Numbered from the stretch's first letter, positions 1,083-22,919 are shown. The stretch is DNA of 64,000 nucleotides from an uncultured Gammaproteobacteria bacterium (GCA_963841645.1 CAWJDS010000018.1:68881-132880); one strand, 5' to 3'. Made by a program: numbers and translations. Notes: generated by a model from the sequence alone, not told the origin.

Positions 1083-1125
1083 ATAGCCGCTCGGGCGCTC
1101 GCGGAGGCTGGCCGAAGCTCGCGGC

Positions 1126-6018: not shown

Positions 6019-7677
6019 ATGGAACTGAAGGTCATGCGCTCGGTGCTCACAGGCGCCGCGCTGCTCGGATTAATTGCCTGCAGCAGCCAGCAAACCGTCG
6101 GTCCGCAGGGAAGCAGTGGTGCGAGCATTCCGATGCCGTCGTCGGGCGGATCGAGCGGTGGATCGCAGTCCTCGTCCGGCGGTGGATCGCAGGGCGGTTC
6201 GAAGTCTTCATCGAGCGGTGGCCCGTCAGGCGGCGGCGGCTCGCAATCTTCATCGGGCTCTCAGGGCGGCTCGTCCGGCTCGCAAGGCGGCTCTTCGGGA
6301 GCACAGGGCGGCTCTTCCGGTGGCGGCTCGCAGGCCGGCGGTTCGTCACGATCGTCGGGCGGCTCGTCCGGAGCGCAAGGCGGTTCTTCTGGCTCACAGG
6401 GCGGCTCGTCCGGCGGTGGTTCGCAGGCCGGTGGTTCGTCCCGCTCCTCCGGCGGCTCGTCGGGCTCATCGGGCGGCTCGTCCGGTTCAGCGGGCTCAGG
6501 CGGCACCGTAGGCGCGGCCGGCTCGGCGTCCGGGCAAGGAGGCTCGCCGTTCCCGACCAGCTCCTCTGGAGGCGGCGGCTCGTCGGCCTCGACCGGCTCG
6601 CGCGGCGCCCAGGGCGGCGCGCAAGGCTCGGGCGGCGCGGGCTCGCAGAGCTCGACGTTCCCGACCGGGACCAGTGGCGGCAGCGGCGGCTCGCAGAACC
6701 CGTTTCCCACGGATAGCTCTGGCGGCGGTGGCGCCGCGGGCGGATCTCAGGCGGGTGGGGCCGGCGGATCGCAAGGCGGCTCGAGCGGTGCGCAGGGCGG
6801 CGGCGCCCAAGGTGGCGGCTCGAGCGGCGCGGGCGGAGGCTCAACGGCAGGCACGCAGGCGGGCGGTGGCGCTTCAGGCGCCGGCGGTTCGGGTTCGCCC
6901 GGCTCCGGTGGCACCGTAGGCGCTGCGGGCTCGGCGGGCGGTCAGGGCGGCTCGGCCTTCCCGACCGGCGGCGGGAACGGCGCCGGTGGCGGCTCGGCTG
7001 ACGGCCGTAGCGCGCAGAACGGCGGCGGTCTCGGCGGGGCGGGCGCGGCGGGTGGCGGCGCAGCGGGTGGCGGCGCAGCGGGCGGTGGCGCAGGCGGCAG
7101 CGGAGCAGCCGGCGGTGGCGCAGCGGGCAGCGGGTCGGGCGGCGGCGGCGGCGACAGCCCGTTCGGCGACGCTCAGGCTGCGAATGGCGCAGGCGGCAGT
7201 GGTGCCGGCCAGGAATTCGATAAGTCGCTGGGCGGCTTCGACGCGCGTATGGGCAAGGAGCAAGACGCAGTCGCGCGGGCCGGCGGCGGCACGGCAGCGG
7301 ATCAGGTGCTCAAAGAGGCGGGCCAGGCCGGCGGCGGTGACGCAGCGGGCGGCGGTGCGCCAGCCGGTGGAGCAGCCGGTGGCACGGCCGCCGCGGGCGC
7401 CGGCGGGTCCGGGCAAGGCGGCCAGGCCGGCAACGGTGCCGCTGGCGGCTCGAGTGCCGTCGGCGGACAGCAGGGCGGCGGCGCGGCCGGTGCGAGCAAG
7501 AACCGCAACGACGACGCGGGCCCCGACAAGGCTGCCGCGACGGTGCAGGGCTGCAACGATACCGACAAGGTCGCGCGCCAGCTTTGCGAGGCGGCGACCG
7601 CGGAGAACGATCCGTTCCTCCGCGCTTCGCTCTGGGAAGAATATAACCAGTACAAGAAGATCGTTGCGCGCCAGTAG
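6019..7677 (+). CDS. lipoprotein with an approximately 480-aa Gly/Ser/Ala low-complexity region and a short structured C-terminal domain (operon gene 1)
   Basis: SD-like GAGGGAGGA lies 5 nt upstream of the ATG. Lipobox LLGLIAC. Long GGSSG[AS]QGG repeats with periodic [SP]FPT motifs. Non-repetitive C-terminus: CNDTDKVARQLCEAATAENDPFLRASLWEEYNQYKKIVARQ. Confidence 0.7.
   Translation: MELKVMRSVLTGAALLGLIACSSQQTVGPQGSSGASIPMPSSGGSSGGSQSSSGGGSQGGSKSSSSGGPSGGGGSQSSSGSQGGSSGSQGGSSGAQGGSSGGGSQAGGSSRSSGGSSGAQGGSSGSQGGSSGGGSQAGGSSRSSGGSSGSSGGSSGSAGSGGTVGAAGSASGQGGSPFPTSSSGGGGSSASTGSRGAQGGAQGSGGAGSQSSTFPTGTSGGSGGSQNPFPTDSSGGGGAAGGSQAGGAGGSQGGSSGAQGGGAQGGGSSGAGGGSTAGTQAGGGASGAGGSGSPGSGGTVGAAGSAGGQGGSAFPTGGGNGAGGGSADGRSAQNGGGLGGAGAAGGGAAGGGAAGGGAGGSGAAGGGAAGSGSGGGGGDSPFGDAQAANGAGGSGAGQEFDKSLGGFDARMGKEQDAVARAGGGTAADQVLKEAGQAGGGDAAGGGAPAGGAAGGTAAAGAGGSGQGGQAGNGAAGGSSAVGGQQGGGAAGASKNRNDDAGPDKAAATVQGCNDTDKVARQLCEAATAENDPFLRASLWEEYNQYKKIVARQ
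6265..6450 (+). repeat. 93-bp tandem duplication (2 copies, 78/93 identical) inside the Gly/Ser-rich lipoprotein gene
   Basis: Copies at 6265-6357 and 6358-6450 aligned by hand, 15 mismatches, in frame (31-aa unit). A second dispersed ~66-bp repeat encodes GSGGTVGAAGSA.GQGGS.FPT near 6487 and 6904. Confidence 0.8.
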
Positions 7678-7695: not shown

Positions 7696-9186
7696 ATGCG
7701 CCGCGTCGCGATAACTTTCGTCGCAGGGTTGTCATTCATTGCGGGCTGCACGAGCACCGAGGTGCTCGTCGCGCACTCGGTCGCGCTCGAGAAGAGCACG
7801 ACCGAGATCGCCGAGAATCAGCTGCTCGACGTCGGCGTCACGGTGTTCGACTCGGGCGTGCCCGAGGGAGAGGTCGACAAAGACGTCCTCGAGCACCTGA
7901 TCAAGGAAGGCACGTTCGTGCAGATCCGCAGGAGCGAGGCGATCTACATGGCCGTCTTGCTCCGCAACACGCTCCAGAAGAGCGCGAATTGGGGCACGGT
8001 GTGGGTCACGCCGAAGGATTCGACTGCGGCGGATCTGAGCGTCGATGGCAAGATCCTGCATTCCGACGGCGACTACTTCCAGCTGCACGTCAAAGCCACC
8101 GATGCGACGGGTCACCTCTGGATCGACAAGACGTACCAGATGTCGACCGCCGCCGGCGCGTTCAATCGCCAGCGTTACCCCGACCTCGATCCGTACCAAG
8201 ACGTGTTCAACGAGGTCTCGAACGACCTCGCGAAGGCGCGCAAGGGCCTGTCGGCGAAAGACACGCAAACGATTCGAACCACCGCAGGGTTGCGCTACGC
8301 GGCCGACCTGAGCCCCGAGGCGTTCAACGGTTACGTCGTCGACAACAAAGGGCAGTACAAGATCAATCGCCTGCCGGCCGACGGCGACCCGATGTACGAC
8401 CGCACCGAGCGCGTGCGCCAGCGCGAGCGCCTGTTCCTCGATACGATCGACGAGCACTACGACCAGTTCTACAAGGACGCAAGCACGCCCTACAACGGCT
8501 GGCGCGAGAGTGCGCGCGAGGAGTCGATCGAGGTCAAGGAGCTGACGAAGTCCGCGCATTGGCGCACCGGCATGGGCATCGCGTCGATCCTCGCGTCGGT
8601 CGTCTACGGCAGCAGCCACGGCGGCGAGTTCACCGAGCGCATGCTGCGCGACGCCGTGCTCTATATCGGCGTCGACATGCTGCGGACGAGCCAAGTCCGC
8701 AAGCAGGAAAAGCAGATCCACCAGCAGCAGCTCGAGGAGCTCAACGGCTCGTTCGACGACTCGATCAAGCCCGTCGTCGTCGCGATCCAAGGCACCGAGC
8801 ACCGGCTGACCGGCACCGCCGATGCGCAGTACAACGAGTGGCGCGACCTGCTGCGCCAAATCTTCATCGAAGAGAGCGGCTTCGTGCCGGACGACTTGAC
8901 GGTCTATGCGGGCGAAGTGGAGCCGGCCGCTCCACGTCAAGATCCGCTTCCCGGCCTCGCGTTGAAGTTGCCCGCCGGCGGCATACCGGCGGCTGCCGAG
9001 GCCGGGGCGGCCAATGCACCCACCGGTGCCGCCGCTGCGCCCGAGCAAGCATCCGAAGCCACTCCTGCGCCGGCGGAAGGCGCGAGCGCACCGGCGCCCG
9101 CGTCGCCGTCCGCGCCCTCGAGTGAAGCGGCCGCTCCCGCAGAATCTCCAGCCAATGCCACTTCGAGCGCCGCCAACGGGGGCTGA
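7696..9186 (+). CDS. hypothetical lipoprotein with Ala/Pro-rich C-terminal tail (operon gene 2)
   Basis: Lipobox SFIAGC. 496-aa intact ORF starting 18 nt after gene 1. Globular N-terminal ~410 aa with one Gly-zipper-like hydrophobic stretch (WRTGMGIASILASVVYGSS). The last ~80 aa are A/P/S/E low complexity. Confidence 0.7.
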   Translation: MRRVAITFVAGLSFIAGCTSTEVLVAHSVALEKSTTEIAENQLLDVGVTVFDSGVPEGEVDKDVLEHLIKEGTFVQIRRSEAIYMAVLLRNTLQKSANWGTVWVTPKDSTAADLSVDGKILHSDGDYFQLHVKATDATGHLWIDKTYQMSTAAGAFNRQRYPDLDPYQDVFNEVSNDLAKARKGLSAKDTQTIRTTAGLRYAADLSPEAFNGYVVDNKGQYKINRLPADGDPMYDRTERVRQRERLFLDTIDEHYDQFYKDASTPYNGWRESAREESIEVKELTKSAHWRTGMGIASILASVVYGSSHGGEFTERMLRDAVLYIGVDMLRTSQVRKQEKQIHQQQLEELNGSFDDSIKPVVVAIQGTEHRLTGTADAQYNEWRDLLRQIFIEESGFVPDDLTVYAGEVEPAAPRQDPLPGLALKLPAGGIPAAAEAGAANAPTGAAAAPEQASEATPAPAEGASAPAPASPSAPSSEAAAPAESPANATSSAANGG

Positions 9187-10018
9187 GCGCGACGCCGAGC
9201 CGGACGTCCCGTACTGCGCTGACGCTCCGCTGCGTTCGACGCGCGATTTGTTTGCGTCCGCCGGCTTGCGCCTCATCGAGAGGGTCGGCGTCGGCGGCAG
9301 CTCCGAAGTCTGGCGCGCGCTCGACACACGCGAGCGCAGTATCGCGCTGAAGATTCCCCTCTCCGGCGCACATGACTCGTTCGCGCGGCTCGAACGTGAG
9401 CACGACGTGCTCGCGGCCGCACAGCACGGCCACATCGTCGAGACGCACGGCCTCATCGAGCACGACGGCGTGTGCGCGCTCGCGCTCCAGTACTTACCCG
9501 GCGGCGACCTCGTTTCCCTCGCCGGGGTCGACCCGCGCCACTGGTTGCGGGCGGCATATGCCGTCCACGCTGCGCTCACGCATCTGCACTCGCTCGGTTA
9601 TGCCCACCGCGACGTGAAGGCGCGCAACGTGCTGTTCGATGCGCGCGGACGCGCGCGCCTCATCGACTTCGCCTCCGCCTTGCCGCTCGGTGCTCCGGCG
9701 CAATACGGCGGCACCACGGCCGCACACCGGCGGTCTGGACGCAACCCGATTGTCACGGCCGCGGACGACGCTTATGCGTACGCGGTTCTGCTGTACGAGC
9801 TCATTGCGGGCCGGCTGCCGTACGGTCCCGCAGGCCGGCAGCCCGTGTCGCGCACGCGCCTCGCGCCTCCCGGGGGGCGCAAGGGCCCCGCGGCGGCGCT
9901 GGCCGCCCGAGTCCGCGACGTGCTCGAAGCCGATCCTAGGCGTGCGCCAGGACTTTCAGTCTTTGCGGATGTCTTAGAATCTGCCATTCCGGCCGACCTC
10001 GAGCCGGCCGAGATCTGA
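9155..10018 (+). CDS. Hanks-type Ser/Thr protein kinase-like protein (operon gene 3)
   Basis: Motifs GVGGSSEVW (G-loop), IALKIP (beta3 Lys), HRDVKARNVLF (catalytic loop), LIDFASA (DFG variant DFA), YAYAVLLYELIAGRLPY. The start is uncertain: ATG 9155 overlaps gene 2 by 32 nt, and the alternative is TTG 9248. Confidence 0.75.
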   Translation: MPLRAPPTGAERDAEPDVPYCADAPLRSTRDLFASAGLRLIERVGVGGSSEVWRALDTRERSIALKIPLSGAHDSFARLEREHDVLAAAQHGHIVETHGLIEHDGVCALALQYLPGGDLVSLAGVDPRHWLRAAYAVHAALTHLHSLGYAHRDVKARNVLFDARGRARLIDFASALPLGAPAQYGGTTAAHRRSGRNPIVTAADDAYAYAVLLYELIAGRLPYGPAGRQPVSRTRLAPPGGRKGPAAALAARVRDVLEADPRRAPGLSVFADVLESAIPADLEPAEI

Positions 10019-10043: not shown

Positions 10044-11552
10044 GTGGAGCCGAGCCAAGCACAACACGAAGAGACCGTAGTCCCGATCAAGCCGGGGCTA
10101 CGTGCCGCGCGTGCGGACACGGCTGCGGCTGCCGCGACCGCGGTACAGCTGCGGACACGCACGCCGTTTTGGCAGTACCTCGCCGGCGCGCTGCTGATCG
10201 CGGCCGCGGTGTTCGTCTTCGCCTTGTTCCCGCGCCTCATGCAGCCGGCGCCCGACCGGCCGGCCGCTGCCACGGCGCCGCAGCCGAGCGCGCCCGACGC
10301 GCCACAGCTGTCTGCCGAAGAGCTCGCCAGGCTCAAGTCGCAGGCCGACTCGCTGCTCGCGAAGCTGCTGTCGCAGCAGAGCCAGCTGGATGCGCTGCAC
10401 GTCGATTCCTGGGGCGGCGACCAATACGCCCATTACAAGGAGCTCGGCAACGCGGGCGAGGACGCGTTTCTCGCGAACGACTTCGCGAAAGCGGTCGCGA
10501 AGTACACGGACGCGACCACCGTGGGCTCCGAGCTGCTCTCCCGATCGGGGGAGATCGTGCAGCGCGCGATCGCGGCGGCACAGGAAGCATTCGCGGCCGC
10601 GAACGCCGAGGTCGCGATCGCGCAGTACGACGTCGTGCTCGGCATCGAGCCCGAGAACGCGACCGCCAAGGCCGGGCGCGCGCGCGCGGAGCGTCTGCCG
10701 GAGGTCCTTACGCTCGTCGAGCGCGGCAATACGGAGCGTGACGCGGGTGAGCGGCAGAAGGCGATCGCGACTTATCGCGAGGCGCTCGCGATCGATCCGC
10801 GCTGGGAACCCGCGAGCCGCGCGCTCGCGGCTGTGACCGCCAACGTGCGCGACGCGGACTTCGAGCTCGCGATGTCGCAAGGCTCGAAGGCACTCGCGGC
10901 GGAGAGCTACGCGGAGGCGCAGAAGCAATTCCAAACCGCGCTCGCGCTGCGCCCGCAGGCGCACGAGGCGCAGGACGGACTCACCCAGGCGCAGGAGGGC
11001 GAGAGGCTCGGCAAGATCGCGCTCACCGAAGCCCGCGCGCTCGCATTCGAGCGCCGCGAGCTCTGGGACCAAGCGATCGGGCAGTACAAGGGCGCGCTCG
11101 CAGACGATCCGACCCTCGTGTTCGCAAGGACGGGCCTCGAGCGCTCGGAGCTGCGCGCGGGCCTCGACGCGAAGCTCCGCAACTTGATCGACAATCCGAC
11201 GCTGCTGTTCGGCGACACGGTGCTAGCCGACGCGCGCAAGCTCGTCGTCGAGGCGCGCGGCATCGCCGAGCCGGGGCCGGTGCTGACCGACCAGATCGGC
11301 AAGCTCGACCGCCTCGTGACGCTCGCGGCGACGCCGATCGCCGTGCGCCTCACGTCGGATCAGCACACCGAGGTTACGGTTTATCGCGTCGGTGCGCTCG
11401 GCTCGTTCACGGCCAAGGAGCTCCAGCTCCGACCCGGGACGTACACGGCGATCGGCAGCCGCAACGGCTTTCACGACGTGCGCCAAACTTTCACGGTCGT
11501 GCCGGGTCGAACTCTGCCGCCGATCAGTGTGATTTGCAGCGAACCGATCTGA
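10044..11552 (+). CDS. membrane-anchored TPR-repeat protein with C-terminal beta-sandwich (PEGA-like) domain (operon gene 4)
   Basis: GTG start. One TM helix (FWQYLAGALLIAAAVFVFALF). Repeated TPR-like helical pairs (AIAQYDVVLGIEPENATA, AIATYREALAIDPRWEPA, AQKQFQTALALRPQAHEA, AIGQYKGALADDPTLVFA). The C-terminus VTVYRVGALG..LQLRPGTYTAIGSRNGFHDV is PEGA-like. Confidence 0.75.
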   Translation: MEPSQAQHEETVVPIKPGLRAARADTAAAAATAVQLRTRTPFWQYLAGALLIAAAVFVFALFPRLMQPAPDRPAAATAPQPSAPDAPQLSAEELARLKSQADSLLAKLLSQQSQLDALHVDSWGGDQYAHYKELGNAGEDAFLANDFAKAVAKYTDATTVGSELLSRSGEIVQRAIAAAQEAFAAANAEVAIAQYDVVLGIEPENATAKAGRARAERLPEVLTLVERGNTERDAGERQKAIATYREALAIDPRWEPASRALAAVTANVRDADFELAMSQGSKALAAESYAEAQKQFQTALALRPQAHEAQDGLTQAQEGERLGKIALTEARALAFERRELWDQAIGQYKGALADDPTLVFARTGLERSELRAGLDAKLRNLIDNPTLLFGDTVLADARKLVVEARGIAEPGPVLTDQIGKLDRLVTLAATPIAVRLTSDQHTEVTVYRVGALGSFTAKELQLRPGTYTAIGSRNGFHDVRQTFTVVPGRTLPPISVICSEPI

Positions 11553-11571: not shown

Positions 11572-14028
11572 ATGGGCGCAAGCAATGTAGCGCGCGACTC
11601 GGTCGTGACGATCGAGCACCTCGGACGGACCCGCGAGCTCCCGGCGAGCGCGCTGCCGGCCACGATCGGCGGCGACACGGCCGCGACCATGAGGATCAAC
11701 GGCCTGCCCGGCTTGATCGAGATTCGCGAGCACGACGGCGCGTTCTTCGTCGCCGCGGGACGAGGAGCGCGCAATTTGCGCGTCGACGGCGCGCCCGTCG
11801 CCGGCACGCGCGAGCTCAAGGACGGCGACGTGATCGCGTTCGATCGCGCGCGCTTGGCGTGCCGGATCGACGGCGGCCGGCTCGCCATCGCAATCGAGAC
11901 GCTCGTGACCGCGGGCGACACGGCGCCGCCCGACCTCCGTGAGGACGCGGCCGGCGACGACGTAGACGGCGATGTCGGCCAGACGATCGTGAAGCCCGTC
12001 GCGTTCAAGTTGCCGCCCGTCGTCGGCGCCGGCGCGAAGCCGGGCGCCTCGAGGGCGGTGACGATCGGCGCGCGGCGTCGTGCTCGCGTTGCTCGCGGTC
12101 TTTGCGTGGTTCGCGTTCACGGCGAAGTCCGTCGCATTGAATTTGGATCCCGAGCCCGAGGCGATGAGCCTGCCGGGCACGCTGTTCAAGATCCGCTACG
12201 GCGATCAGTACTTGCTGCATCCGGGCTCCCATCGCGTCGCCGCGACGCTCAAAGGCTATTACCCGCTCGATACCCAATTCGAGGTGACGAGCGCGTCCGG
12301 TCAAGTGATCGACCTCAAGCTCAAGAAGCTGCCGGGGCTGGTCACCCTGACGACCGAGCCCGAGGCTATGGCGCGCGTGCTGCTCGACGGCATGCCGCTC
12401 GGCGAGACGCCGCTCAAGGACGCGGAGATCACGCCCGGCGTCCACCGCCTCGAGCTCAGCGCCGACCGATTTTTGCCTCAGGTCGTCGAGATCGACGTAC
12501 GCGGCGCCGCCGAGCGCCAATCGCTCGTCGCGAAGTTGACGCCGAACTGGGCGCCGGTGTCGCTCGCGACGCAGCCGCCCGGCGCGACCGTGCTCGTCGA
12601 CGGTGCCGACGTCGGCGTCACGCCGCTCGAGATGCAGATCACCGCGGGCGAGCGGCAGATCGAGGCGCGCCTGAGCGGCTACAACGCGTGGACGAACAAG
12701 GTCATCGTGAGCGCCGGCACGCCGCTGCAGCTGCCCGACGTGAAGCTCGCGCTCGCCGACGGCCGCGTCGACATCGTGAGCAACCCGGCCGAGGCCAACG
12801 TGAGCATCGACGGAGAGTATCGCGGCCGCTCGCCGCTCACCGTCAAGCTCACGCCGGGGAAAGCGCACGAGCTCACGCTCACTAAGCCCGGGTACGAGAC
12901 TGCGACGCGGAGCCTCTCGATCGCGGCCGACAGCGGCCGAAAGCTCGCGATCGATCTCGTCGCGCAATACGGAGAGGTGCAGGTCGAGAGCACGCCGGTC
13001 GGCGCGGATGTTTGGGTCGACGGCGAGCGGCGCGCTGCAACGCCCGTGACGCTCTCGCTCACGGGGGTTAGCCACGAAATCGAGATCCGGCGCACTGGCT
13101 TCGCGAACGCGCAGCAGCGCGTGACGCCGCGCCCCGGCTTCCCGCAGAAGCTCGACTTCGACCTCACGGCGCTCGATCAGAGCACGGGCGGCGGATACCC
13201 GACCGTGCGCAAGACGGGCGCGGGCCAGGAGCTCAAGGTGATTCCGTCGGGCCAATTCACGATGGGCTCGTCGCGGAGCCAGCAAGGCCGGCGCGCGAAC
13301 GAGGTGCTGCGGCCCGTGCGTCTCACGAAGGCGTTCTATCTCGGGGTCCGCGAGGTTACGCAATACCGATTTCCGCGCATTCAAGCCCGATCACAAGTCC
13401 GGCGAGTTCGGTGGCAAGACGCTCGACGAGGGCGACCAGCCGGTCGTGCGCGTGACGCCCGAAGAGGCGATGCAGTACTTGAATTGGCTCAGCATCCGCG
13501 ATGGGCTCCAGCCCGTCTACGAGCAAAAGAACGGCGTCTGGGCCGCGGTGCGACCGCTGCGCGGCGGCTATCGGTTGCCTACCGAGGCCGAGTGGGAATG
13601 GGCCGCGCGCTACGCGGGCCGCGACTCCGCGCTGTTGTATCCGTGGGGCGCCGACTGGCCGCCGCCCGATCGCTCCGGAAACTGGGCCGACGTCTCGGCG
13701 CGCAACATGCTGCCGACGATATTGGTCACCTACAATGACGGCTTCCCGGTCAGCGCGCCGAGCGGAACGTTCGAGCCGAATCCCGTCGGTATCCGCGACC
13801 TGGGCAGCAACGTCGCTCGAGTGGATCCAGGACTTCTACGTGCCCGACATCACGGAGAACGTGAAGCTCGTGGAGGATCCGCTCGGGCCGGAGACCGGCC
13901 AGTTGCACGTGGTGCGCGGCGCGGGCTGGCGCAGCGCGACCGTGCAGGACCTGCGCATGGCCGCGCGAAGCTACGGCACGGATGCGCGCGAGGACATCGG
14001 CTTCAGGATTGCGCGCAATCTCGAGTGA
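11572..14028 (+). CDS. FHA domain - TM - PEGA repeats - formylglycine-generating-enzyme (SUMF1/FGE-sulfatase)-like domain protein (operon gene 5); three +1 frame breaks (near 12070, 13361, 13816)
   Basis: N-terminus is FHA-like (IGGDTAATMRI..LIEIREHDGAFFV..RNLRVDGAPV..LKDGDVIAF). TM helix VVLALLAVFAWFAF. Four to five PEGA units (e.g. ATVLVDGADVGVTPLEMQI, ANVSIDGEYRGRSPLTVKL, ADVWVDGERRAATPVTLSL). C-terminal FGE-type motifs: FTMGS, RLPTEAEWEWAAR, NVAEWIQD, VVRGAGW. Confidence 0.8.
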
Positions 14029-14092
14029 TCTCGATGCTCGGAACGAAGGACAACGGAATCGTCGCCCGCGCCCGGGCGCGATGGAGGCGACC

Positions 14093-14440
14093 ATGAACAT
14101 TGCACGAGTCTTTGCCGTCGCGATCACGCTCGGCGTGCTCTCGACCGCGTCGTCGCAGGAGACGCAGAAACAGGAAGCGCCGCAAGCTGCCAAACCGGCG
14201 GCCGACGCGCCGGCGAACGCGCCGCAAGCGCCGGCCGGCAACGCGGCGCAGACGCCGGGCGCGCCGTCCTCGGGCGCCTCGCAGCCGGCCACGGGAGCTC
14301 AAGCGCCCGCTTCAACCGCGTCTCCGCCCCCGCCTCCCTCGGCGGCCACCGGCAAGACCGGCGTGATCAAGGACAACGAGTTCATCCCGACGGAAGAGAT
14401 CCAGCCCGACGAAGCCGTGACGTTCCCGGTCGACATCTGA
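14093..14440 (+). CDS. small secreted Ala/Pro/Gln-rich protein with conserved-looking C-terminus (operon gene 6)
   Basis: Signal peptide MNIARVFAVAITLGVLSTASS. Low-complexity middle. C-terminus GVIKDNEFIPTEEIQPDEAVTFPVDI. The stop is 11 nt before the next start. Confidence 0.55.
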   Translation: MNIARVFAVAITLGVLSTASSQETQKQEAPQAAKPAADAPANAPQAPAGNAAQTPGAPSSGASQPATGAQAPASTASPPPPPSAATGKTGVIKDNEFIPTEEIQPDEAVTFPVDI

Positions 14441-14451
14441 CGAGCTGACGG

Positions 14452-15835
14452 ATGCGCACTCTCGCGATCGAGTTCAACGACGCCGGCATCGCGATCGCGG
14501 ACGCGCAGTCCGTGCTCGCGATCGAGCCCGGCTACGCGGTCGTCGAGGGCACCAAGATCATCACGGGCCGCGACGCGGTCGCGAAGGCGCGGCTCAATCC
14601 GCGTCAGGCGAGCAATCGCTTCTGGAATGCGATGAGCCTGGAACGCGGCTCCGCCGGCAGCGAGATAACGCAGAGCGCCGCGGAGCTCGCGTTCGCGCAG
14701 ATCGATTCGCTCTGGAAGCGCTTCGGCGGCGGCGCCGACAACGCGGTGCTCGTGGTCCCGGGCCACATCCGCGGCGAGCAGCTGGGTCTCGGCCTTGGGC
14801 TCGCGAACGAATGCGGCATCGATGTGCGCACGATCGTCGCGACGGCGGTGGCTGCGAGCGTGCGGCCATATCCGGGCCGGCAGCTGCTCTACGTCGATGC
14901 GGGCCTCTATCGCGTTGCCGCGACGCTGATCGAGCAGGGCAGCGAAGCGATCGTGAGCTCCGAGCAGAGCGTGATCACCACGGGCCTCGCGAGTCTCACG
15001 GAAGGCTTCGCGCGCCGAATCGCCGAGCTGTTCGTGCGGGCGACACGGTTCGACCCGCTGCACAAGGCCGAGACCGAGCAGATGCTCTACGACCGTTTGC
15101 CCGGCTGGCTCGAGCGGCTGCGCGATCAGGACCGGATCGAGATCACGCTGCCGCAGCACGGCGAGGAGCAGAAGATCACGCTCGACCGCGACGCGCTGCG
15201 TTCCGTTACGGCCGGGTTCAACCGCGCGCTCGTGCAGCTCATCGCATATTTCCGCCAGCCGGGCCAGAGCGTCGTGATCCAGGTGTCCGCGCATCTCGCG
15301 TCGCTGCCCGGAATCGCGGCGGAGCTCGCGCGCCTCGACGACGCGCACATCGTGCCGCTGCCTCCGGGGCATGCGGCGCGCAGCGCGTTGCTGAAGCCCG
15401 AGCTGATCCAGGCGCAGCAGGGCCAGGTGAAGCTCTTGAAGAGGCTCGGTTGGCGCGAGCCGCCGGCCGACCCGTCGGCGTCGGGTGCCCAGCCGGCGCC
15501 GGTCACCGCTGCATTGCACGAGTTTCCGCCGACGCACGTCGTTTACGCGGGCATCGTGTATCCCATCGGGGCGCGCGGGCTCGTCGTCGGCCGCGAGCCG
15601 GTCGACGGCCGGCGCACGATCGTCGTCGCGAGCCAGGCGAACGGAGTGTCGCGCGCGCATTGCGAGCTCGTCGTGCGTGACGGCGAGCTCAAGCTCATCG
15701 ATCTCTCGCCGCTACGGCACCTTCGTGAACGAGAAGAAGGTCGCCGGCGAGACGACGCTGCAACGCGCCGACGTGATCCGGATCGGCTCGCCGGGCGCCG
15801 AGCTCCAGGTCGTCAGCGTGGAGCCCGCGCAATGA
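14452..15835 (+). CDS. Hsp70/actin-fold-like protein with C-terminal FHA domain (operon gene 7); one +1 frame break near 15707
   Basis: N-terminus MRTLAIEFNDAGIAIAD...VVPGHIRGEQLGL...LLYVDAGLYRV resembles a degenerate Hsp70/ASKHA layout (weak call). C-terminus is a clear FHA: GLVVGREP...GVSRAHCELVVRDGELKLIDLS/RYGTFVNEKKV..ADVIRIG. Confidence 0.7.
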
Positions 15836-16939
15836 AGCAGCGCCGCCGCGAGCTCAACATCTTCTCGATGTCGTTCCTCGACGCGATCACGGCCGGATTT
15901 GGCGCCGTCGTGCTGCTGTTCATGCTCGTGAACCAGAATGCGCTCGTCGACACGCAGACCGCGATCAAGGCCACGGAGGCCGAAGCGCAGCGCTGGGAGC
16001 TCAAGGTGCTCACGGGCCAAAAGAACCTCGTGCAGATCAAGGAGCTGCTCCAGAAGCAGCTCGAGCAGTGGACCGCGCTCAAGGCGCTGCGCCAGAACCT
16101 CGTGAGCGAGGTGACGGAGACGACAGACGAAGCTCGCGACGCTCACCGAGGACTCCGCGGCGCGCAAGGCCGCAATCGAAAAGCTGCAAGGCCGACCTCG
16201 CGTCGCTCGAGACCGAGACGAACAGCATGAAGGCCGCGGCCGCCAAGCCTTCGAAGAACAACGACGGCGATCGCATTCGCGGGTTCGAGGGCGAGGGGCA
16301 TCGGCAGTACCTGACCGGCCTGCGGATGGGCGGCTCGCACGTGCTGATCCTCGTCGACGCCTCGACGAGCATGCTCGACCGCACGATCGTCAACGTGATC
16401 CGGCGGCGCAACATGCCGCCCGACCAGCAGCGCAAGTCGCCGAAGTGGCAGCAGGCCGTCAACACGGTCGATTGGCTCACGACTCAGATCAAGCCCGGCA
16501 CGAACGTGCAGATCATCGCGTTCACCGATAAAGCGATCACGCTCACGCCGAATACGGACGGCAAGTGGATCACGCTCACCGACGGCAGCGAGCTCGACGC
16601 GGCAATGACCTCGCTCAAGGGCATGGTGCCGAAAGGGCCGACGAGCCTGCACGCCGCGTTCACGGCTGCGCGGATGCTCGAGCCGAAACCCGACAACATC
16701 TACCTGATCACCGACGGCTTGCCGACGATGGGCGAGATCGTGCCCGCGCGCCAGGGCGCGACGGGCCGCGAGCGGCTCGATCACTTCAACCGAGCCGTGC
16801 GGCAGCTGCCGGTCGGCGTCGCCCGTGAACATCATCCTGCTCGCCGATGGAAGGCGATCCCGCGGCCGCGCCCGCGTTCTGGGTGCTCGCTTTGCGGACC
16901 GGCGGCTCGATGCTCGCGCCGTCCGAGGATTGGCCATGA
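15832..16939 (+). CDS. TM - coiled-coil - von Willebrand factor A domain protein, paralog 1 (operon gene 8); four +1 frame breaks (near 16128, 16190, 16818, 16845)
   Basis: ATGA overlap with gene 7. N-terminus MKQRRRELNIFSMSFLDAITAGFGAVVLLFMLV. Heptad-rich segment. vWA with MIDAS VLILVDASTSM, then IYLITDGLPT. The reconstructed end ...PMEGDPAAAPAFWVLALRTGGSMLAPSEDWP stops at 16937-16939. Confidence 0.8.
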
Positions 16940-17950
16940 AACGCCGCCGCGAGCTCGAAGTGTTCAGCATGTCGTTCCTCGACGCGATCTGCTGCGGCTT
17001 CGGGTCGATCATTCTGCTGTTCATCATCAGCCGCAACAGCGGAGCCGATTCGTCTCGAGCAGAGCCAGAAGGACCTCTCGGGCGTGATCGCGCAGTACCA
17101 GCAGGAGCTCAACGAGATCCTCGGCGAGACCGATATCGTGCGCCGCGACGAAGCGACGACCGCGAGCGACCTGCGCACGGATCAGCGCAAGGTCGAGGAC
17201 CTCAAGGGCCAGCTCGACAAGATTCGCGCCGAGGTGCTCTCGACCACGAAGGACACGACGTTCTCGAACGAGATCGAGGGCAAGCTCGCGACCGCGAAGC
17301 AGAGTCTCAGCGACGACATGAAGAAGCTGCTCGCCGACTACAAGCCGCCGCTCGACGAGTACAAGGTCGGCGGCATCCCGGTCGACAGCGAGTACATCGT
17401 GTTCCTCGTCGACACGTCGGGCAGCATGCAGCAATACGCCTGGGACCGGATGCTCGAGGAGGTGCGGCAGACGCTCCAGGTCTATCCGACCGTCAAGGGC
17501 ATCCAGGTGATGGACGACGAGGGCGCGTACCTCTTCAAGAGCTACCGCAACGAGTGGATTCCCGACACGCCGTCGCGCCGCCAGGCGATTCTCGACGCGA
17601 TGAAGAACTGGCACTCGTACTCGGACTCGAGCCCGCGCGAAGGGTATCCTCGCGGCGCTCGACGTGTTCGCCGATGGCCAACAAGAAGATCTCGCTCTAC
17701 GTGTACAGCGACGACTTCGCGGTCGGCAAGGTGAACTCGATCGTGCGCGAGATCGATCGGCGCAACAAACCGGACGCGAACGGCAAGCGGCTCGCGCGGA
17801 TTCACGCGGTCGCGTTTCCGACGATCTACGAGGCGACCGGCGGCGACATGTACACCGAGGCGGACTTCGCGGTGCTGCATGCGCGCGATCTGCCAGCGCA
17901 ACGGCGGCACGTTCGTCGCGTTGCCCGCGCGCCGCGACATGGGCCGCTAG
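16936..17950 (+). CDS. TM - coiled-coil - von Willebrand factor A domain protein, paralog 2 (operon gene 9); four +1 frame breaks (near 17043, 17650, 17680, 17877)
   Basis: ATGA overlap with gene 8. N-terminus MKRRRELEVFSMSFLDAICCGFGSIILLFIIS is near-identical in pattern to paralog 1. Coiled coil, then vWA MIDAS IVFLVDTSGSM. Reconstructed end ...MRAICQRNGGTFVALPARRDMGR, TAG at 17948-17950. Confidence 0.8.
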
Positions 17951-18018
17951 CGCGCGATCGGTCGATCGGACAGCCTGGGCGCCGACTGCCGCGCGACCGC
18001 TGCCGCTGGCCGTTGCGC

Positions 18019-19333
18019 CTAGGTCGGGTTCTCGAGGCTGAAGCGCGCCTTCTCGTCGTCGTACGCGAAGAGCTCCGCGTAGCGGCCCCAGGCTGATGAT
18101 CGCGCGCAGCGTCTGCTCGGCGGCTTCGGGCGTCATGTAGTCCTCGAGCTCGTCGAAGAAACGGCTCATCGGCGCGACGTGCGACGCGCGCTCGTCGAGC
18201 ACGCGGCGGACGTGCGCCGCGAGCGGTACGTAGGCGAGCAGCTGCCGCGCGAAGATCTTCTTGCGCTCGTCGAGCGCCGCGCGCGCGAACGCAGGCCCCG
18301 CGTCGAGCAGCCGGATGTCGCCGCCCTCGAGCTGCGGCGAAGCGCAGCATCTGCAGCGTCTCGGCGACCGGGAAACAGCTCGTCGATCTCCATCTGCAGG
18401 CAGGAAGCGATCTCCGGCAGGTCGGCTTTGCCGTTGAACGGCTCGCTCGCGAGCGTCTCCATGAGGCCCGACAGCAGGTTCGACGACACGCGCGGCAGCA
18501 CCGTGCCGAGTCCCTGGCCCGGCAAGCCCTCGGGCTCGCGCGCTCGGGCGCATGGCGGCGCGAGCGTCATCTCGACGTAGATGCGCTCGACGAGCGCGCG
18601 GAAGCTCGGGTCGAGACGATTCCGCGGCTGCGGCAGCGTCACCTGGATCTCGGTCAGGATGCGCCCGGGATTGCGTGCCGAAGATCGAGGATCCGGTCGC
18701 ACATCAGCACCGCTTCCTCGATGTTGTGCGTCACGAGCAGCACGCCCTTGATCGGCATGCGCCCGTCGGCACCAGAGATCGAGGAAGTCGGTGCGCAGCG
18801 TCTCCGCGGTCAGCACGTCGAGCGCCGAGAACGGTTCGTCCATCAGCAGGATGCTGCGGATGCACGACGAGCGCGCGCGCGAAGCCGACGCGCTGGCGCA
18901 TGCCGCCCGAGAGCTCGCGCGGATACGCGGACTCGAAGCCGTCGAGGCCGATCAGGTCGATCGCCGCGAGCGAGCGCTTGCGGATCTCCGCGCTCGGCAC
19001 GCCGCTGCGCCTCGAGCCCGAGCGCCACGTTCTCGTAGCACCGTGAGCCACGGGAACAGCGCGAAGCTCTGGAACACCATCGCGATCCCGAGCGGCGGAC
19101 CGTCGATCGGCTCGCCGCGATACGCGAGCGCTTCCGGCGCTCGGCTGCGACAAGCCCGGCGATCAGCCGCAGCAGCGTGGACTTGCCGGACCCCGAGCGT
19201 CCGAGCAGGCCGACGATCTCGCCCTCGTGCATGCGAAGGTTCACGCCGTCGAGCACGAGCAGCTCGCCGCCGTCGGGCGCGGAAACGCCTTGCGGACGTC
19301 GTCGACGTCTGCAGCAGGCGGTACGGCGTTCAT
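18019..19333 (-). CDS. ABC transporter ATP-binding protein (nitrate/sulfonate/bicarbonate type) with C-terminal AAA-associated domain; multiple frame breaks
   Basis: Pieces read in order: [40 protein letters not shown] (Walker A), [15 protein letters not shown] (signature), MDEPFSALD (Walker B). The extra domain is ...[23 protein letters not shown]...[12 protein letters not shown]...[28 protein letters not shown]. Confidence 0.8.
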
Positions 19334-19343
19334 CGCGCGTCCC

Positions 19344-21082
19344 TCAGCCGAGCCGGAACTTGCGCTCGGCGTAGTCGTACAACGGCCTCCAGAAGCACGC
19401 GGTTGATCACGACGACGAACAGACACATCGTCGCGATGCCGAGCACGATGCGATGCAGGTCGCCGGCCGCCGTCGCGTCGGCGATGTACGCGCCGAGGCC
19501 GTGCGCCTCGAGCTTCATGTCGCCCCAGCTCGCGACCTCGGCGACGATCGCCGCGTTCCACGAGCCGCCCGAGGCCGTGATCACGCCCGGTCACGTAGTA
19601 GGGGAAAACGCCGGGCAGCGCGACCTTGCGCCACCAGAGCCAGCCGCCGACCTGCAGGTTCTCCGCCGCGTAGCGCAGCTCGTTCGGCATCGCGCGTCGC
19701 GCCGACGATCACGTTGAACAGGATGTACCACTGCGTGCCGAGGATCATCAGCGGGCTGAGCCAGACGTTCGCGTCGAGATGCCAGGTGACGATGCCGTAG
19801 ACCGCGAGCGGGAACAGCAGGTTCGCCGGGAACGCCGCCAGGAACTGCGCGACCGGCTGCACGATCTGCGGCGCGCGCGGCCGCAGGCCGACCCAGACGC
19901 CGACCGGCACCCAGACGACGCTCGCGAGCGCGATCAGCACGAACACGCGCATCATCGTGAGCAGCGCGAGGCCGGCGACGCTCGAGCGCCTCGGCGAGCG
20001 ACGTCTCGCTCGATCAGCATCGCGACGATGTGCCAGCAGCGCGAACGCGAGCGCCGCGACGAGCACCGAGCACGAGCGCGAGCAGACCCGCCGCGGCGGT
20101 CGCGCCGCGGTTCGGCCGCGGCGCGCTTCGCCGGCACGTGCCGGCGCCGCGCGGCCCAGCGAACAGGGCGCGGAACGCGCCGCGCACGGCGCCGACGAGC
20201 CGCGAGCGGCGCAACACCGTCGAGCACCCACGACGTCGGCGCCGCGAGCCCCGGGTCCTGCTCGACGCGAAAGCGATCCACCCACGCGACGAGCGGCCGG
20301 AACAGCAGCTGGTCGTAGAGCAGGATCACGACGAGCATCGTGACGATCGCCCAGCCGATCGCCGCGAGGTTGCGCTGCTCGATCGCGAGCGCGATGTACG
20401 AGCCGATGCCCGGGCAGCGCGACACGTCGTGTTGCCGACGCTGATCGCCTCGGCGGCGACGACGAAGAACCAGCCGCCCGACATCGACATCATCATGTTC
20501 CAGACGAGCGCGGGCATCGCGAACGGCACCTCGAGCCGCCAGAACCGCATCCACGGCGCGAGGTGGAACGAGTCCGCGGCCTCGCGGAGCTCGGTGGGCA
20601 CGGTGCGCAGCGACTGGTAGACGCTGAACGCCATGTTCCAGGCCTGGCTCGTGAAGATCGCGAAGATCGCCGCGAGCTCGGCGCCGAGCACCCGGCCGCG
20701 CCCGAGCGTCAGAAAGAACACCACGGTGATCGAGATGAAGCCGAGGATCGGCACGGACTGCAGGATGTCGAGGATCGGCACCAGCAGCTTGCCGGCGCGC
20801 TCGTTCTTCGCGGCCCAGGTCGCGTAGCTCAGCGAGAACAGCAGCGAGACGGCGAGCGCCGCGAGCATGCGCAGCGTCGTGCGCGCCGCGTACTCGGGCA
20901 GGTGAATCGGGTCGAGCGACAGCGGCAGCGGCCTCGAGATGCGCGAGCGGCTCGAGCAGCTCGCGGCTCGTGCTCGCGAGGAACGCAACGAACCCGATCA
21001 CGAGCACGATCGCTACCGCGTCCCATGGCGTCGTCGTGAGGCGCCGCAGGCCGAAGAAGTCGACTTCTCGCGTGGAGCTCAA
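19344..21082 (-). CDS. fused double-domain ABC transporter permease; many frame breaks
   Basis: Fragments give two BPD-type permease halves. Examples: LLVPILDILQSVPILGFISITVVFF, EAADSFHLAPWMRFWRLEVPFAMPALVWNMMMSMSGGWFFVV. Second half: VWVPVGVWVGLRP...AQFLAAFPANLLFPLAV, LRYAAENLQVGGWLWWRKVALPGVFPYYVTG. Confidence 0.8.
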
Positions 21083-21268: not shown

Positions 21269-22051
21269 GTGAGCGACACTCTCCAGAACCTCCTGCTCGG
21301 CGTCATCGAAGGCATCACCGAGTTCCTGCCGATCTCGAGCACCGGCCACCTGCTCATCGCCCAGCATTGGCTCGGCCAGCGGTCCGAGCTCTTCACGGTC
21401 GCGATCCAGGTCGGTGCGATTCTCAGCGTCGTCGTGATCTATTGGCAGCGCCTGCTCGATCTCGTGTTGCGGTTTGGCCGGCCCGAGAACCGTGACTATT
21501 TCCTCAAGCTCGTGGGCTCGTTCCTGATCACCGGCGCAGGGGGCTTCGCCGCGAAGAAGCTCGGCTTGGAGCTGCCGGAGTCGCTCGCTCCGGTCGCGTG
21601 GGCGCTCGCGGTCGGCGGCGTGCTGATTCTCGTGATCGAGCGGCTGCTCGCGTCGGCCGCCCCGAACGAGACGCTGACCTGGAAGGTCGCGATCTGGGTC
21701 GCGATCGGCCAGATCGTCGCCGCGGTGTTCCCGGGCACTTCGCGCTCGGCGGCCGCGATCTTCGCCGCGATGCTCGCGGGCCAGACGTCGCGGCCGGCCG
21801 CGGCCGAGTTCGCATTCCTCGTCGGCATCCCGACGATGTTCGCGGCCGCGGGCTATGACCTCCTCAAGGCGCTACACGCGGGCGGCGGCGGTGAGGACTG
21901 GGGCGGGCTCGCGGTCGCGTTCGTCGCGTCGGCCGTGGTCGCGTTCGCGTCCGTGAAGTGGCTGCTCGTGTACATCCAGTCGCATCGCTTCACGGTGTTC
22001 GCGTGGTACCGGATCGCACTCGGCGCCGCGTTGCTCGTCTTCGTTCGCTGA
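21269..22051 (+). CDS. uppP: undecaprenyl-diphosphate phosphatase
   Basis: Intact 260-aa ORF with GTG start. BacA/UppP signatures GVIEGITEFLPISSTGHL and PGTSRSAAAI..A.LAG. Confidence 0.92.
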   Translation: MSDTLQNLLLGVIEGITEFLPISSTGHLLIAQHWLGQRSELFTVAIQVGAILSVVVIYWQRLLDLVLRFGRPENRDYFLKLVGSFLITGAGGFAAKKLGLELPESLAPVAWALAVGGVLILVIERLLASAAPNETLTWKVAIWVAIGQIVAAVFPGTSRSAAAIFAAMLAGQTSRPAAAEFAFLVGIPTMFAAAGYDLLKALHAGGGGEDWGGLAVAFVASAVVAFASVKWLLVYIQSHRFTVFAWYRIALGAALLVFVR

Positions 22052-22177: not shown

Positions 22178-22919
22178 ATGAGAAAGCAGATTATCGTCCT
22201 GGCCGTCGGCGCGCTGCTCGCGCAGACGGGCTGGACCCGTGACAAGAGCGAAGACCCCAAGGCCCATCCCGACAAGGAGCAATCGATCGGTCTCGGCAGC
22301 GGCGCTGCGATCGGCGCGATCGCCGGTGGCCCCGTCGGTCTCATCATCGGCGCCGCGATGGGTGGCTGGCTCGGCGACCGATTCCATCACGAGCACGTGA
22401 CCCGCTCGGAGTCCGAGCAGCAGGCGAGCCCAGGCTCAGGCGCATGCCGCGTCGCTCGAGCAGCGCTTGAGCGGCACGGAGCAGCAGCTCGCGTCGAGCC
22501 ACGCCGAGCTCCAGAGCGAGCGCAACGCGCATCGCGACGACATCGAGCGCGCCGTGGCGCTCGACGTGCACTTCCGCACGGAGGACAGCACGATCGATGC
22601 CGGCGACGAGCAGCGGCTCGCGGAGCTCGCTTCGTTCGTGGCACCTCTCGACGGCACCGTGATCCGTCTCGATGGGCACACGGACGTGCGCGGCACGCAG
22701 AAGTACAACGACGCGCTGTCGACTGCGCGCGCCGAATCCGTACGCGACACTCTCGTGCGCGCGGGCATGCCGGCCGAGCGAATCGTCGTGACGGGCGAGG
22801 GGTCGGCCGACGCGACGGCGACCGATCAAGACGTCGACGGCATGGCGCTCGACCGGCGCGTGGCGGTCACGGTCGTCGGTCTCGACGACGCGAGCCGCGT
22901 CGCGCGCGAGACGCACTAG
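22178..22919 (+). CDS. OmpA-family protein with N-terminal glycine-zipper segment; one +1 frame break near 22427
   Basis: Signal peptide. Gly zipper GLGSGAAIGAIAGGPVGLIIGAAMGGWLG. Coiled linker. OmpA C-like domain FRTEDSTIDAG..L.ELA......IRLDGHTDVRGTQKYNDALSTARAESVRD.LV.AG...RI...G.G. Confidence 0.8.

Follow-up and report, generated by a model that had tools for sequence, protein, structure and literature searches.

Ion-driven motors of the 5:2 type, among them the flagellar stators, the Ton and Tol systems, the motors of gliding and type IX secretion (T9SS) and Zorya, form a major current theme in bacterial cell biology, and each new output module found on such a motor has revealed a new way to spend the proton-motive force outside the cytoplasm. 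A further candidate was added in 2025, when pairs of ‘transpore-helix vWA’ (TPH-vWA) proteins were predicted to serve as the dimer of a 5:2 motor (PMC12204202). These transmembrane-tethered vWA proteins occur in Proteobacteria, mostly as heterologous pairs and in tight synteny with a tolQ homolog, with no tolR or exbD; AlphaFold3 puts the transpore helix inside a TolQ-like pentamer, beside a threonine ring, and force is proposed to be transduced by rotation of the vWA proteins within the pentamer (PMC12204202). The family is a computational prediction, the paper reporting no experiment. Here we describe a gene triplet with a vWA pair of this kind in a 64-kb stretch of DNA from an uncultured gammaproteobacterium (CAWJDS010000018.1:68881-132880; the whole stretch is hereafter called the window), where a gene encoding an Hsp70-like domain joined to an FHA domain (gene 7) is followed by two vWA genes (vWA1 and vWA2). 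We assign a probability of about 0.6 to the reading that this triplet is the cytoplasmic and ‘B-subunit’ half of an envelope system of some ten genes, arranged around a proton channel of the TolQ/ExbB/MotA type, in which the vWA pair probably replaces the usual plug subunits of the motor. Our confidence lies above that figure for the statement that the triplet belongs to a TolQ/TPH-vWA system and below it for the roles given to single parts.

Gene 7 (14452..15835, plus strand) starts with an ATG at 14452, changes frame near 15708 and stops with a TGA at 15833-15835; its product, predicted to be cytoplasmic, consists of a domain resembling the Hsp70 nucleotide-binding domain (the ASKHA fold; residues 1 to ~330), a linker, and an FHA domain at residues ~360-455. 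The vWA1 gene (15832..16939, plus strand) runs from an ATG at 15832 through four frame changes to a TGA at 16937-16939, and encodes a basic tail, an Asp-bearing transmembrane helix of the transpore type, a further helix some 90 residues long, and a vWA domain whose metal-ion-dependent adhesion site (MIDAS) reads D-A-S-T-S...T...D. Its paralog vWA2 (16936..17950, plus strand), with an ATG at 16936, again four frame changes and a TAG at 17948-17950, repeats this architecture with D-T-S-G-S as its MIDAS. The three co-directional genes are thus present where the original prediction placed them, the peptides it quoted (MKQRRRELNIFSMSFLDAITAGFGAVVLLFMLV, MKRRRELEVFSMSFLDAICCGFGSIILLFIIS and AIEFNDAGIAIAD, together with the MIDAS strings DASTS and DTSGS) all appear in the translations, and the two ATGA overlaps are there as well (ATG 15832-15834 over TGA 15833-15835, and ATG 16936-16938 over TGA 16937-16939).

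A scan that used one genome per species yielded 76 distinct related loci, all from uncultured Gammaproteobacteria and several of them named Candidatus Rariloculaceae; the triplet recurs in all 76 of the 76 that are long enough to show its three genes. Gene 7 and vWA1 overlap in 60 of 67 related loci, and the overlap between vWA1 and vWA2 is exactly 4 nt in 56 of 63. Because they are kept across related loci, the overlaps are not chance. They suggest translational coupling, as had been proposed, but the fixed stoichiometry that was read into them does not follow from overlaps.

As the window stands, none of the three genes is a continuous open reading frame (three-frame translation of 14400-18100), and the earlier reading had passed across the frame changes without mention. 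Each of these changes is a 1-nt insertion in the window (G+C ~69%) relative to a 91%-identical locus, L001, as seen in the nucleotide alignment. There are nine genic sites, one in gene 7 (15708), four in vWA1 (16123, 16186, 16818, 16839) and four in vWA2 (17041, 17640, 17682, 17878), with a further 1-nt insertion at 14446, in the spacer upstream of gene 7. Is the window copy, then, a decaying remnant, in which nine real frameshifts and the loss of the motor gene have left the system dead? Nine single-base insertions within 3.5 kb, none of them within a homopolymer in the alignment to L001, are what such decay might look like, and there is no TolQ-like gene in the window; we nevertheless consider this highly improbable. 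The extra base is wanting in L001 and, at or within a few bases of all nine genic sites, in independent contigs of three soil metagenomes sequenced by Illumina and a soil metatranscriptome; apart from the inserted bases, the sequence is 91% identical to L001 and free of in-frame stops; and relatives that likewise have no motor gene have intact genes. Unrelated neighbours are split across frames too, namely the genes for a PEGA/FGE-sulfatase protein (11572-14028) and an OmpA-like protein (22178-22919) and an ABC-transporter operon on the minus strand (18166-21082), while more than 600 gene 7 orthologs in databases are intact at ~460 residues. Since L001 and the Illumina contigs do not have the insertions, the orthologs are intact and neighbouring genes are broken in the same way, the nine insertions are most likely errors of sequence or assembly rather than signs of pseudogenisation, and frame-corrected proteins and intact orthologs were therefore used throughout. 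Contigs of a soil metatranscriptome (X3) cover most of 14400-17925 at 90-99% identity, which suggests that close relatives transcribe the triplet genes in soil; carry-over of DNA is possible. Once sequence errors are allowed for, the observation is real, and the first reading of the locus was largely right on folds and architecture.

The two vWA proteins are full-length paralogs (hhalign 99.6%, E 4e-24, 307 columns). Pfam VWA_2 matches vWA1 above its cut-off (E 7.6e-8); vWA2 scores 21.9 bits, below the 27-bit cut-off, and is counted as a vWA protein because it is homologous to vWA1. Family alignments of 21 vWA1 and 19 vWA2 orthologs reveal a common plan, in which a basic tail, a hydrophobic helix and a long helical segment precede a vWA domain with D-x-S-x-S, a Thr or Ser, and a final Asp. 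The tail carries a conserved R-R-E-x-N-V-F-S motif, and the hydrophobic helix of both families contains F-S-L/M-S-F-L-D-x-I/M-x-C-G-F-G-A. In the MIDAS of vWA1, S177, S179 and D294 are invariant, and D175 and the T of GPTSL nearly so; in that of vWA2, D159, S161, S163 and D258 are invariant and a Ser stands where vWA1 has its Thr. An AlphaFold2 model of the vWA1 monomer has a helix at 13-34, a continuous helix at 40-131 and an alpha/beta vWA fold at 165-355, the last of which matches the vWA domains of CLCA1, BatB and CMG2 in Foldseek; the N-terminal part is predicted with low confidence, as is usual when a membrane helix is modelled on its own. Paralogy, alignments and model thus agree with the earlier description of tandem paralogs with an N-terminal anchor, a heptad-rich stretch and a MIDAS-bearing vWA domain.

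That description had gone on to liken the anchor to the N-terminus of ExbD/TolR, and the idea holds up in spirit, on grounds different from the proposed test. Comparisons of profiles fail to make the link: Pfam ExbD (PF02472) has no match to the full vWA proteins or to their N-terminal fragments even at E <= 10, and a profile of 35 anchors run against PDB finds no ExbD, TolR or MotB chain, only chance matches (phosphodiesterase 1B, NDUFB4). Neither is the periplasmic alpha/beta domain of ExbD/TolR found in the vWA proteins, which have the long helix and the vWA domain in its place, and the vWA proteins have two more residues between the conserved Asn and the Asp than E. coli TolR has (the TolR sequence used being an exact match to PDB). 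What does support the likeness is the transmembrane Asp and the genomic context. The Asp, D17 in the anchor alignment and invariant there, is present in 68 of 70 vWA1 and 63 of 64 vWA2 sequences (131/134), including both window proteins and a clade that has no motor gene. An ExbD/TolR-like role is favoured because of this near-invariant Asp, because a MotA_ExbB gene is adjacent in relatives, and because the loci hold no ExbD/TolR motif: a regular-expression search for the canonical ones found none in the window or in 79 loci.

The MotA_ExbB gene (Pfam E 4.8e-13) adjoins the triplet in 67 of 74 evaluable loci (91%), in 56 of them as the next gene upstream of gene 7 and in 11 as the next one downstream of vWA2; in seven it is absent with both flanks visible, nothing of the kind lying within 10 kb. 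In the relatives’ TolQ-like protein, T189 and T222 are invariant; in an alignment with E. coli TolQ they coincide with two threonines of that protein, one in GTVWG and one in ATA, which we take to be T145 and T178, essential pore residues. The original statement that the operon has no ExbB/TolQ/MotA-like partner is accordingly true of the window, whose 64 kb gave no TolQ-like gene to an HMM (hidden Markov model) of the TolQ-like family or to tblastn with E. coli TolQ and TolR, and true of the closest clade, but it does not extend to the great majority of relatives.

Measured against the published description of the TPH-vWA family, the window pair fits in every descriptive respect save tolQ adjacency. 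Both its proteins are membrane-tethered vWA proteins with the transmembrane Asp, and they are heterologous paralogs whose genes occur together in every locus long enough to show them; the threonine ring is found in the relatives’ TolQ-like proteins, and the adjacent tolQ/exbB/motA homolog, missing from the window, is likewise found in those relatives.

A tree of gene 7 proteins, built by neighbour joining, places the window in a group with L001, L004, L005, L006 and L062, all of them motor-less; this group is sister to a clade in which the motor gene lies downstream; each clade of the tree has a single motor-gene arrangement. The upstream position is the deep, ancestral state, the downstream type of TolQ-like protein is only ~44% identical to the upstream type, and L017 and L022 look like independent losses of the gene, the position of which is labile. 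In the downstream-motor clade (L010, L011, L016, L018, L021, L026, L030, L058, L059, L061, L065) the TolQ-like gene lies at ~13550-14340 in locus coordinates. A cytoplasmic loop of the TolQ-like protein, LPEDTREY, is otherwise invariant and reads LPSDAREY in that same clade; the Thr of LPEDTREY could be a candidate phosphorylation site read by the FHA domain. The motor-less clade has kept its genes intact and the Asp in place, with ratios of non-synonymous to synonymous substitution (dN/dS) of 0.26-0.69, the other clades showing 0.03-0.49 and equally GC-rich lineages similar values. These ratios indicate that motor-less and motor-bearing clades are both under purifying selection; they cannot show relaxation, because dS is compressed in genomes so rich in GC. 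For the window’s lineage, the simplest reading is that the motor is presumably supplied in trans, and the motor-less clade amounts to a natural experiment, asking if ‘B’ subunits of this kind can work with a motor from another locus.

The persistence of the triplet without a motor gene could also be taken to mean that no motor is needed. The ASKHA protein might clamp the short N-terminal tails of two bitopic paralogs, whose coiled coils and periplasmic heads would build a static inner-membrane platform for adhesion or secretion, with the TolQ-like gene as an accessory dropped in this lineage. The arrangement does parallel PilM/N/O, where an ASKHA protein likewise comes ahead of a pair of paralogs, each made up of tail, transmembrane helix, coiled coil and globular domain; the R-R-E-x-N-V-F-S motif of the tail is conserved; and the motor-less clade retains its genes intact under the purifying selection just described. 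We think this scaffold rather unlikely, however, given that even the motor-less clade retains a charged Asp midway along a membrane helix, that the motor gene is a neighbour in nine-tenths of the evaluable loci and encodes the module protein that has diverged least between phyla (58-61% identity), and that the fold matches of gene 7 are to Hsp70 and not to PilM or FtsA.

The evidence on that fold comes from structure prediction. Residues 1-360 of gene 7 have no Pfam match and none to the HSP70 family; a profile of 27 orthologs, run against PDB sequences, retrieves FHA proteins only; and hhalign of the family against the nucleotide-binding domain of E. coli DnaK gives a non-significant probability of 0.9%, the local alignment being the classic VITVPAYF...INEPTAAA segment. 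An AlphaFold2 model made on a 90%-identical ortholog (pLDDT 86.3, pTM 0.70), by contrast, has Hsp70-family proteins as all 50 of the 50 Foldseek matches listed against PDB, headed by Ssz1, Ssb, BiP and DnaK at E values from 1e-18 to 1e-15, and isolated Hsp70 nucleotide-binding domains superpose on it with TM-scores of 0.69-0.75 and a root-mean-square deviation of ~4 Å. According to this model the N-terminal domain has the two-lobed Hsp70/ASKHA fold, a statement that holds at the structural level only, since Pfam, the PDB profile search and hhalign give no link to Hsp70. The ‘Hsp70/actin-like layout’ of the original prediction is thus upheld by the structural half of the check it called for, while sequence profiles find nothing.

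Its remark on a degenerate first phosphate loop also appears to hold, the family alignment having N-D-A-G in place of D-L-G-T-T. In nucleotide motifs mapped by eye, guided by the secondary structure of the model, the second loop reads D-A-G-L-Y/H-R (D-L-G-G-G-T in Hsp70), the strand at the position of the G-G adenosine motif of Hsp70 reads Q-L-S, and the position of the catalytic Glu in I-N-E-P-T is taken by Asp in most family members and by Ala in the window’s clade; the lobe aspartates D10 and D149, both in DxG, are invariant. This pattern of residues suggests an atypical or inactive ATPase. Gene 7 shares with the nucleotide-binding domains of DnaK, BiP and Ssz1 the overall four-subdomain ASKHA fold and a segment, VLVVPG...EQ...A...G...V...AAA, that mirrors VITVPAYFND..QRQATKDAG.IAGL.V.RIINEPTAAA of Hsp70, whereas identity amounts to only 10-16%, there is no Pfam HSP70 match, and an FHA domain replaces the substrate-binding domain. 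The protein is probably not a chaperone.

The FHA domain itself (residues 378-445) is as textbook-like as had been claimed: Pfam places it at E 1.4e-11, with 45.1 bits against a cut-off of 20.7, and the phosphothreonine-binding residues (G-R, S-R-x-H and N, that is G378, R379, S398, R399, H401 and N424) are invariant in 27 sequences. Members of the ASKHA family, which comprises 1,464 clusters at 50% identity (E <= 1e-3), come in two sizes, ~450 residues with the FHA domain and ~350 without it. Elsewhere in the window (852-1163, minus strand) there is a second FHA-like stretch, 33% identical over 110 residues to the FHA domain of a gene 7 ortholog. The wider family is abundant in soil and marine metagenomes, its vWA1-type proteins numbering more than 5,000; among the 120 matches listed by a vWA1 profile search there are close relatives only, which gives that search no taxonomic reach; NCBIfam holds no curated family for the ASKHA, vWA1, vWA2 or TolQ-like proteins. 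The system is thus widespread and has no curated family, name or phenotype.

How might such a set of proteins work together? The reading of the locus as part of a proton-driven motor builds on observed gene content, folds, paralogy, conserved residues and synteny, from which we infer heterodimer formation, insertion into the pentamer, a periplasmic ligand and a role for the ASKHA-FHA protein. In it, vWA1 and vWA2 would form a heterodimer whose N-terminal helices, each with the protonatable Asp, sit inside the TolQ-like pentamer, at the place held by ExbD, TolR or MotB in 5:2 motors, and the stalks of ~90 helical residues would place the MIDAS-bearing vWA domains in the periplasm. In that position these heads, as the force-bearing or anchoring end, would hold a partner, so that proton flow could cause the partner to be rotated or pulled; three products of the wider cluster are candidates for it, namely the PEGA/FGE-sulfatase protein, the OmpA-like protein, and a small secreted protein whose acidic C-terminus is invariant. 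The gene 7 protein would stay in the cytoplasm, its FHA domain docking on a phosphothreonine written by the Ser/Thr kinase of the cluster, and its degenerate Hsp70-like domain might clamp, or serve as a scaffold for, either the short basic tails of the vWA pair or the cytoplasmic part of the TolQ-like channel protein, thereby gating assembly or activity. In the window’s lineage, the TolQ-like gene would have left the locus and the motor would act in trans. A signalling layer of this kind finds support in the kinase gene of the cluster and in Myxococcota versions that have a kinase-TPR fusion and a PP2C phosphatase.

Several points weigh against this proposal. No TolQ/ExbB/MotA gene accompanies the triplet in the window or in the seven related loci without one; sequence profiles do not connect the anchor with ExbD/TolR, from which it also differs in Asn-to-Asp spacing; and the similarity of gene 7 to Hsp70 is confined to the fold. 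Beyond this, the role ascribed to the ASKHA-FHA protein is deduced from position and domain content only, the match to the TPH-vWA family and its Idiomarina loihiensis reference proteins (PMC12204202) is one of description only, and a 5:2 motor with a vWA pair is, here as in the literature, a computational prediction.

The genes upstream of the triplet belong to the ~10-gene cluster. Its first gene (6019..7677, plus strand), recognized as an open reading frame and by tblastn with its counterparts in L001 and the 58%-identical locus L002, encodes a Gly/Ser-rich predicted lipoprotein that has no Pfam family and is conserved only in its C-terminal ~40 residues, the C-terminal motif recurring in the Myxococcota loci L085 and L084. 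The next (7696..9186, plus strand) encodes a conserved protein of 496 residues with a lipoprotein-like N-terminus and no Pfam or NCBIfam family; it is 91% identical to its counterpart in L001, 68% to that in L002, and 35-36% over ~400 residues to the gene that occupies this place in the clusters of L084, L085 and L086. A Ser/Thr protein kinase follows (9014..10018, plus strand, start uncertain; Pfam Pkinase E 6.5e-23), and then a membrane-anchored TPR protein (10044..11552, plus strand; Pfam TPR_2/TPR_11) with a conserved beta-rich C-terminal domain, which shares 37-39% identity with the C-terminal portion of the fused kinase-TPR proteins of L085 and L086 and with the separate gene at this position in L084. 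In L001 and L002, both of them long contigs, genes of the kinase/TPR region are split as well, and in L001 so is the PEGA/FGE gene.

The PEGA/FGE-sulfatase gene of the window (11572..14028, plus strand) is frameshifted and was pieced together by tblastn in three frames; it encodes a bitopic protein of ~815 residues with PEGA repeats and an FGE-sulfatase (C-type-lectin-like) domain, both recognized by Pfam on intact orthologs, and matches a GldK/PorK-like NCBIfam model at E 1e-26, below the cut-off. An FHA-like N-terminus at one point considered for this protein was dropped for want of Pfam support. Between it and gene 7 lies the gene for the small secreted protein (14093..14440, plus strand), identified by translation, whose ~115 residues comprise a signal peptide, an Ala/Pro-rich linker and the invariant C-terminus ..FIPTEEIQPDEAVTFPVDI-COOH. 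The last ~19 residues are almost invariant across Gammaproteobacteria and Myxococcota clusters, the rest being of low complexity; the consensus F-I/V-P-S/T-E-E/Q-I/L-x-x-D-x-x-V/I-x-F-P-V/I/A-D/N-I-COOH is found in at least 42 of 79 loci, the distant L076, L080 and L084 among them. Such a terminus makes the small protein a candidate ligand, for instance one that offers an acidic residue to a MIDAS site.

Downstream of the triplet, a glycine-zipper/OmpA-like protein predicted to bind peptidoglycan is encoded by another frameshifted gene (22178..22919, plus strand; tblastn, with Pfam OmpA at E 7.7e-17 on the L002 ortholog and an NCBIfam PdsO/YiaD-like match). In most gammaproteobacterial loci this gene comes after vWA2, or after the motor gene where that lies downstream, as a rule no more than ~0.4 kb away, whereas in the window it lies ~4 kb beyond vWA2, separated by an ABC-transporter cluster (ATPase and permease; 18166-21082, minus strand) and uppP (21269-22051), in what looks like a lineage-specific insertion or rearrangement; L001 shares the ABC transporter. 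Farther on, bioF and bioD (window 23758-25002 and 23058-23615, minus strand) also lie downstream of the cluster in L002 (14450-16197), and the cluster is therefore taken to occupy a stable chromosomal position and not a mobile island.

The same module can be recognized in much more distant genomes. A soil contig with an ASKHA identity of 29% has MotA_ExbB, ASKHA, vWA and vWA in this order; a contig from a metagenome-assembled genome (MAG), with an ASKHA protein that has no FHA domain, carries PEGA/FGE-sulfatase, a small gene, MotA_ExbB, ASKHA and vWA; and contigs from Myxococcota/Deltaproteobacteria MAGs have two unknown genes, a kinase-TPR fusion, PEGA/FGE-sulfatase, a small gene, MotA_ExbB, ASKHA and two vWA genes. 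One contig of the Myxococcota type continues after the vWA pair with a PP2C phosphatase and a second kinase, with a PKD domain; in these clusters the fusion, the phosphatase and the PKD-domain kinase lie at L085 14906-17407 (minus strand) and L086 3646-5826 and 12210-17209. In the window, by comparison, the kinase and the TPR protein each have a gene of their own, and a phosphatase is not seen in the cluster. The MotA-ASKHA-vWA-vWA module thus recurs at 29-37% ASKHA identity, with or without the FHA domain, and in tblastn the 496-residue, TPR, PEGA/FGE, vWA1 and vWA2 proteins of the window all have counterparts in loci of the Myxococcota type. Between the phyla the TolQ-like protein (taken from L002) is conserved best, at 58-61%, and the ASKHA protein least, at 32-42%. 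A cluster of ~10 genes, including those for the kinase, the TPR protein, the PEGA-FGE-sulfatase protein and the small secreted protein, is common to Gammaproteobacteria and Myxococcota MAGs.

With its kinase and its array of envelope domains, such a cluster might instead serve surveillance, in a Zorya-like manner: a MotAB-type complex fixed to the wall would perceive envelope damage or the entry of phage, the FGE-sulfatase (FGS) and vWA domains acting as sensors, and the signal would pass inward through the Hsp70-like/FHA protein and the kinase. The domains vWA, FGS, PEGA, OmpA and FHA do all occur in described conflict systems (PMC7159879); in PADLOC the TolQ-like protein matches ZorA (E 6e-4 to 7e-3) and the OmpA-like protein ZorB, weakly and below threshold; and the kinase matches defence kinases of the MADS6/PglW type (E 1e-20 to 1e-8) and, weakly, TCAD9. 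We judge this reading improbable all the same. No defence family reaches significance in PADLOC, which found no ZorC, ZorD or ZorE, and the ZorB matches are driven by the OmpA domain; no nuclease, TIR or protease effector is seen in the conserved cluster; the position beside bioF and bioD is conserved in L002 and the window; the single motor-gene arrangement of each gene 7 clade is unlike mobile defence islands; and the account of conflict systems makes no mention of TolQ/ExbB systems (PMC7159879).

To return to the motor proposal, what does the locus add to what has been published? The original prediction called the combination of domains unusual. The part that joins TolQ to a vWA pair had already appeared as a prediction (PMC12204202), but the Hsp70-fold/FHA subunit is undescribed there: the text of that paper has no mention of Hsp70, FHA, DnaK, actin-like partners, a kinase, a PEGA-FGE-sulfatase gene or a small secreted protein. 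Searches of the literature for vWA together with FHA, ExbB and Hsp70 turned up no account of the system as a whole; a Ferrigenium preprint that they returned proved to be unrelated to it. New with respect to the literature found are therefore the Hsp70-fold/FHA subunit, the kinase/PEGA-FGE/small-protein cluster shared by two phyla, and a clade without an adjacent motor gene. If the motor reading is true, the motor would be gated by eukaryote-like kinase signalling. What sets the output apart is that here the dimer subunits themselves bear integrin-like MIDAS domains, and that they come with a phosphothreonine-signalling layer of their own and an Hsp70-fold subunit. A bolder version, which we offer tentatively and with some doubt, is that the cluster encodes the whole of an envelope machine of a new, proton-driven class. 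Its TolQ-type pentamer would turn a MIDAS-vWA heterodimer; the Hsp70-shaped pseudo-ATPase with its FHA domain would be a dedicated cytoplasmic subunit, and as such the earliest known case of an ASKHA protein joined to a 5:2 motor; a Ser/Thr kinase/phosphatase circuit would turn the machine on and off according to what the periplasmic PEGA/FGE-sulfatase sensor and the small secreted protein detect; and the motor of the window’s clade would be encoded elsewhere or held in common with Tol/Ton.

A comparison with known systems shows where the proposal leans on precedent and where it departs from it. Zorya (ZorAB) is set apart by the nature of its matches, weak ones to ZorA and OmpA-driven ones to ZorB, and by the lack of counterparts to ZorC, ZorD and ZorE. 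PilM-PilN-PilO, the alignment complex of type IV pili, and GspL-GspM resemble the triplet in having an actin-fold cytoplasmic protein beside two paralogous bitopic proteins, each with a short N-terminal tail, a transmembrane helix, a coiled coil and a globular periplasmic domain. They differ in that the fold of gene 7 is nearest to Hsp70 and not to PilM/FtsA, that the periplasmic domains are of the vWA and not the ferredoxin-like type, and that the transmembrane helices of the vWA proteins bear an Asp and are linked to a TolQ-like channel.

GldL-GldM/PorL-PorM, of type IX secretion and gliding, likewise combine a 5:2-type motor with a bitopic dimer subunit that reaches across the periplasm, and the presence of an FGE-sulfatase-family protein and an OmpA-type protein recalls the GldK/PorK ring; the vWA proteins, however, have no homology to GldM, the phyla are others and T9SS components are lacking, and the resemblance to GldK may reflect only the common FGE-sulfatase domain. 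With ExbB-ExbD, TolQ-TolR and MotA-MotB, the vWA proteins share one N-terminal membrane-spanning helix, which follows a basic tail and has its Asp close to the cytoplasmic end, and the relatives’ clusters share a MotA_ExbB partner, recognized by Pfam, with conserved pore threonines, as well as an OmpA-like protein that binds peptidoglycan. The ExbD/TolR HMM match and the periplasmic domain of ExbD/TolR/MotB are missing, a coiled coil and a MIDAS vWA domain standing instead; the proposed dimer would consist of two different paralogs; there is no transducer like TonB or TolA; and a cytoplasmic ASKHA-FHA subunit is dedicated to the system. The TPH-vWA family (PMC12204202) comes closest of all. 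The window and its clade depart from it in having no tolQ-like gene, and the cluster, in the window as in its relatives, adds to its published form a gene for an Hsp70-like/FHA protein, a kinase, a PEGA-FGE-sulfatase protein and a small secreted protein.

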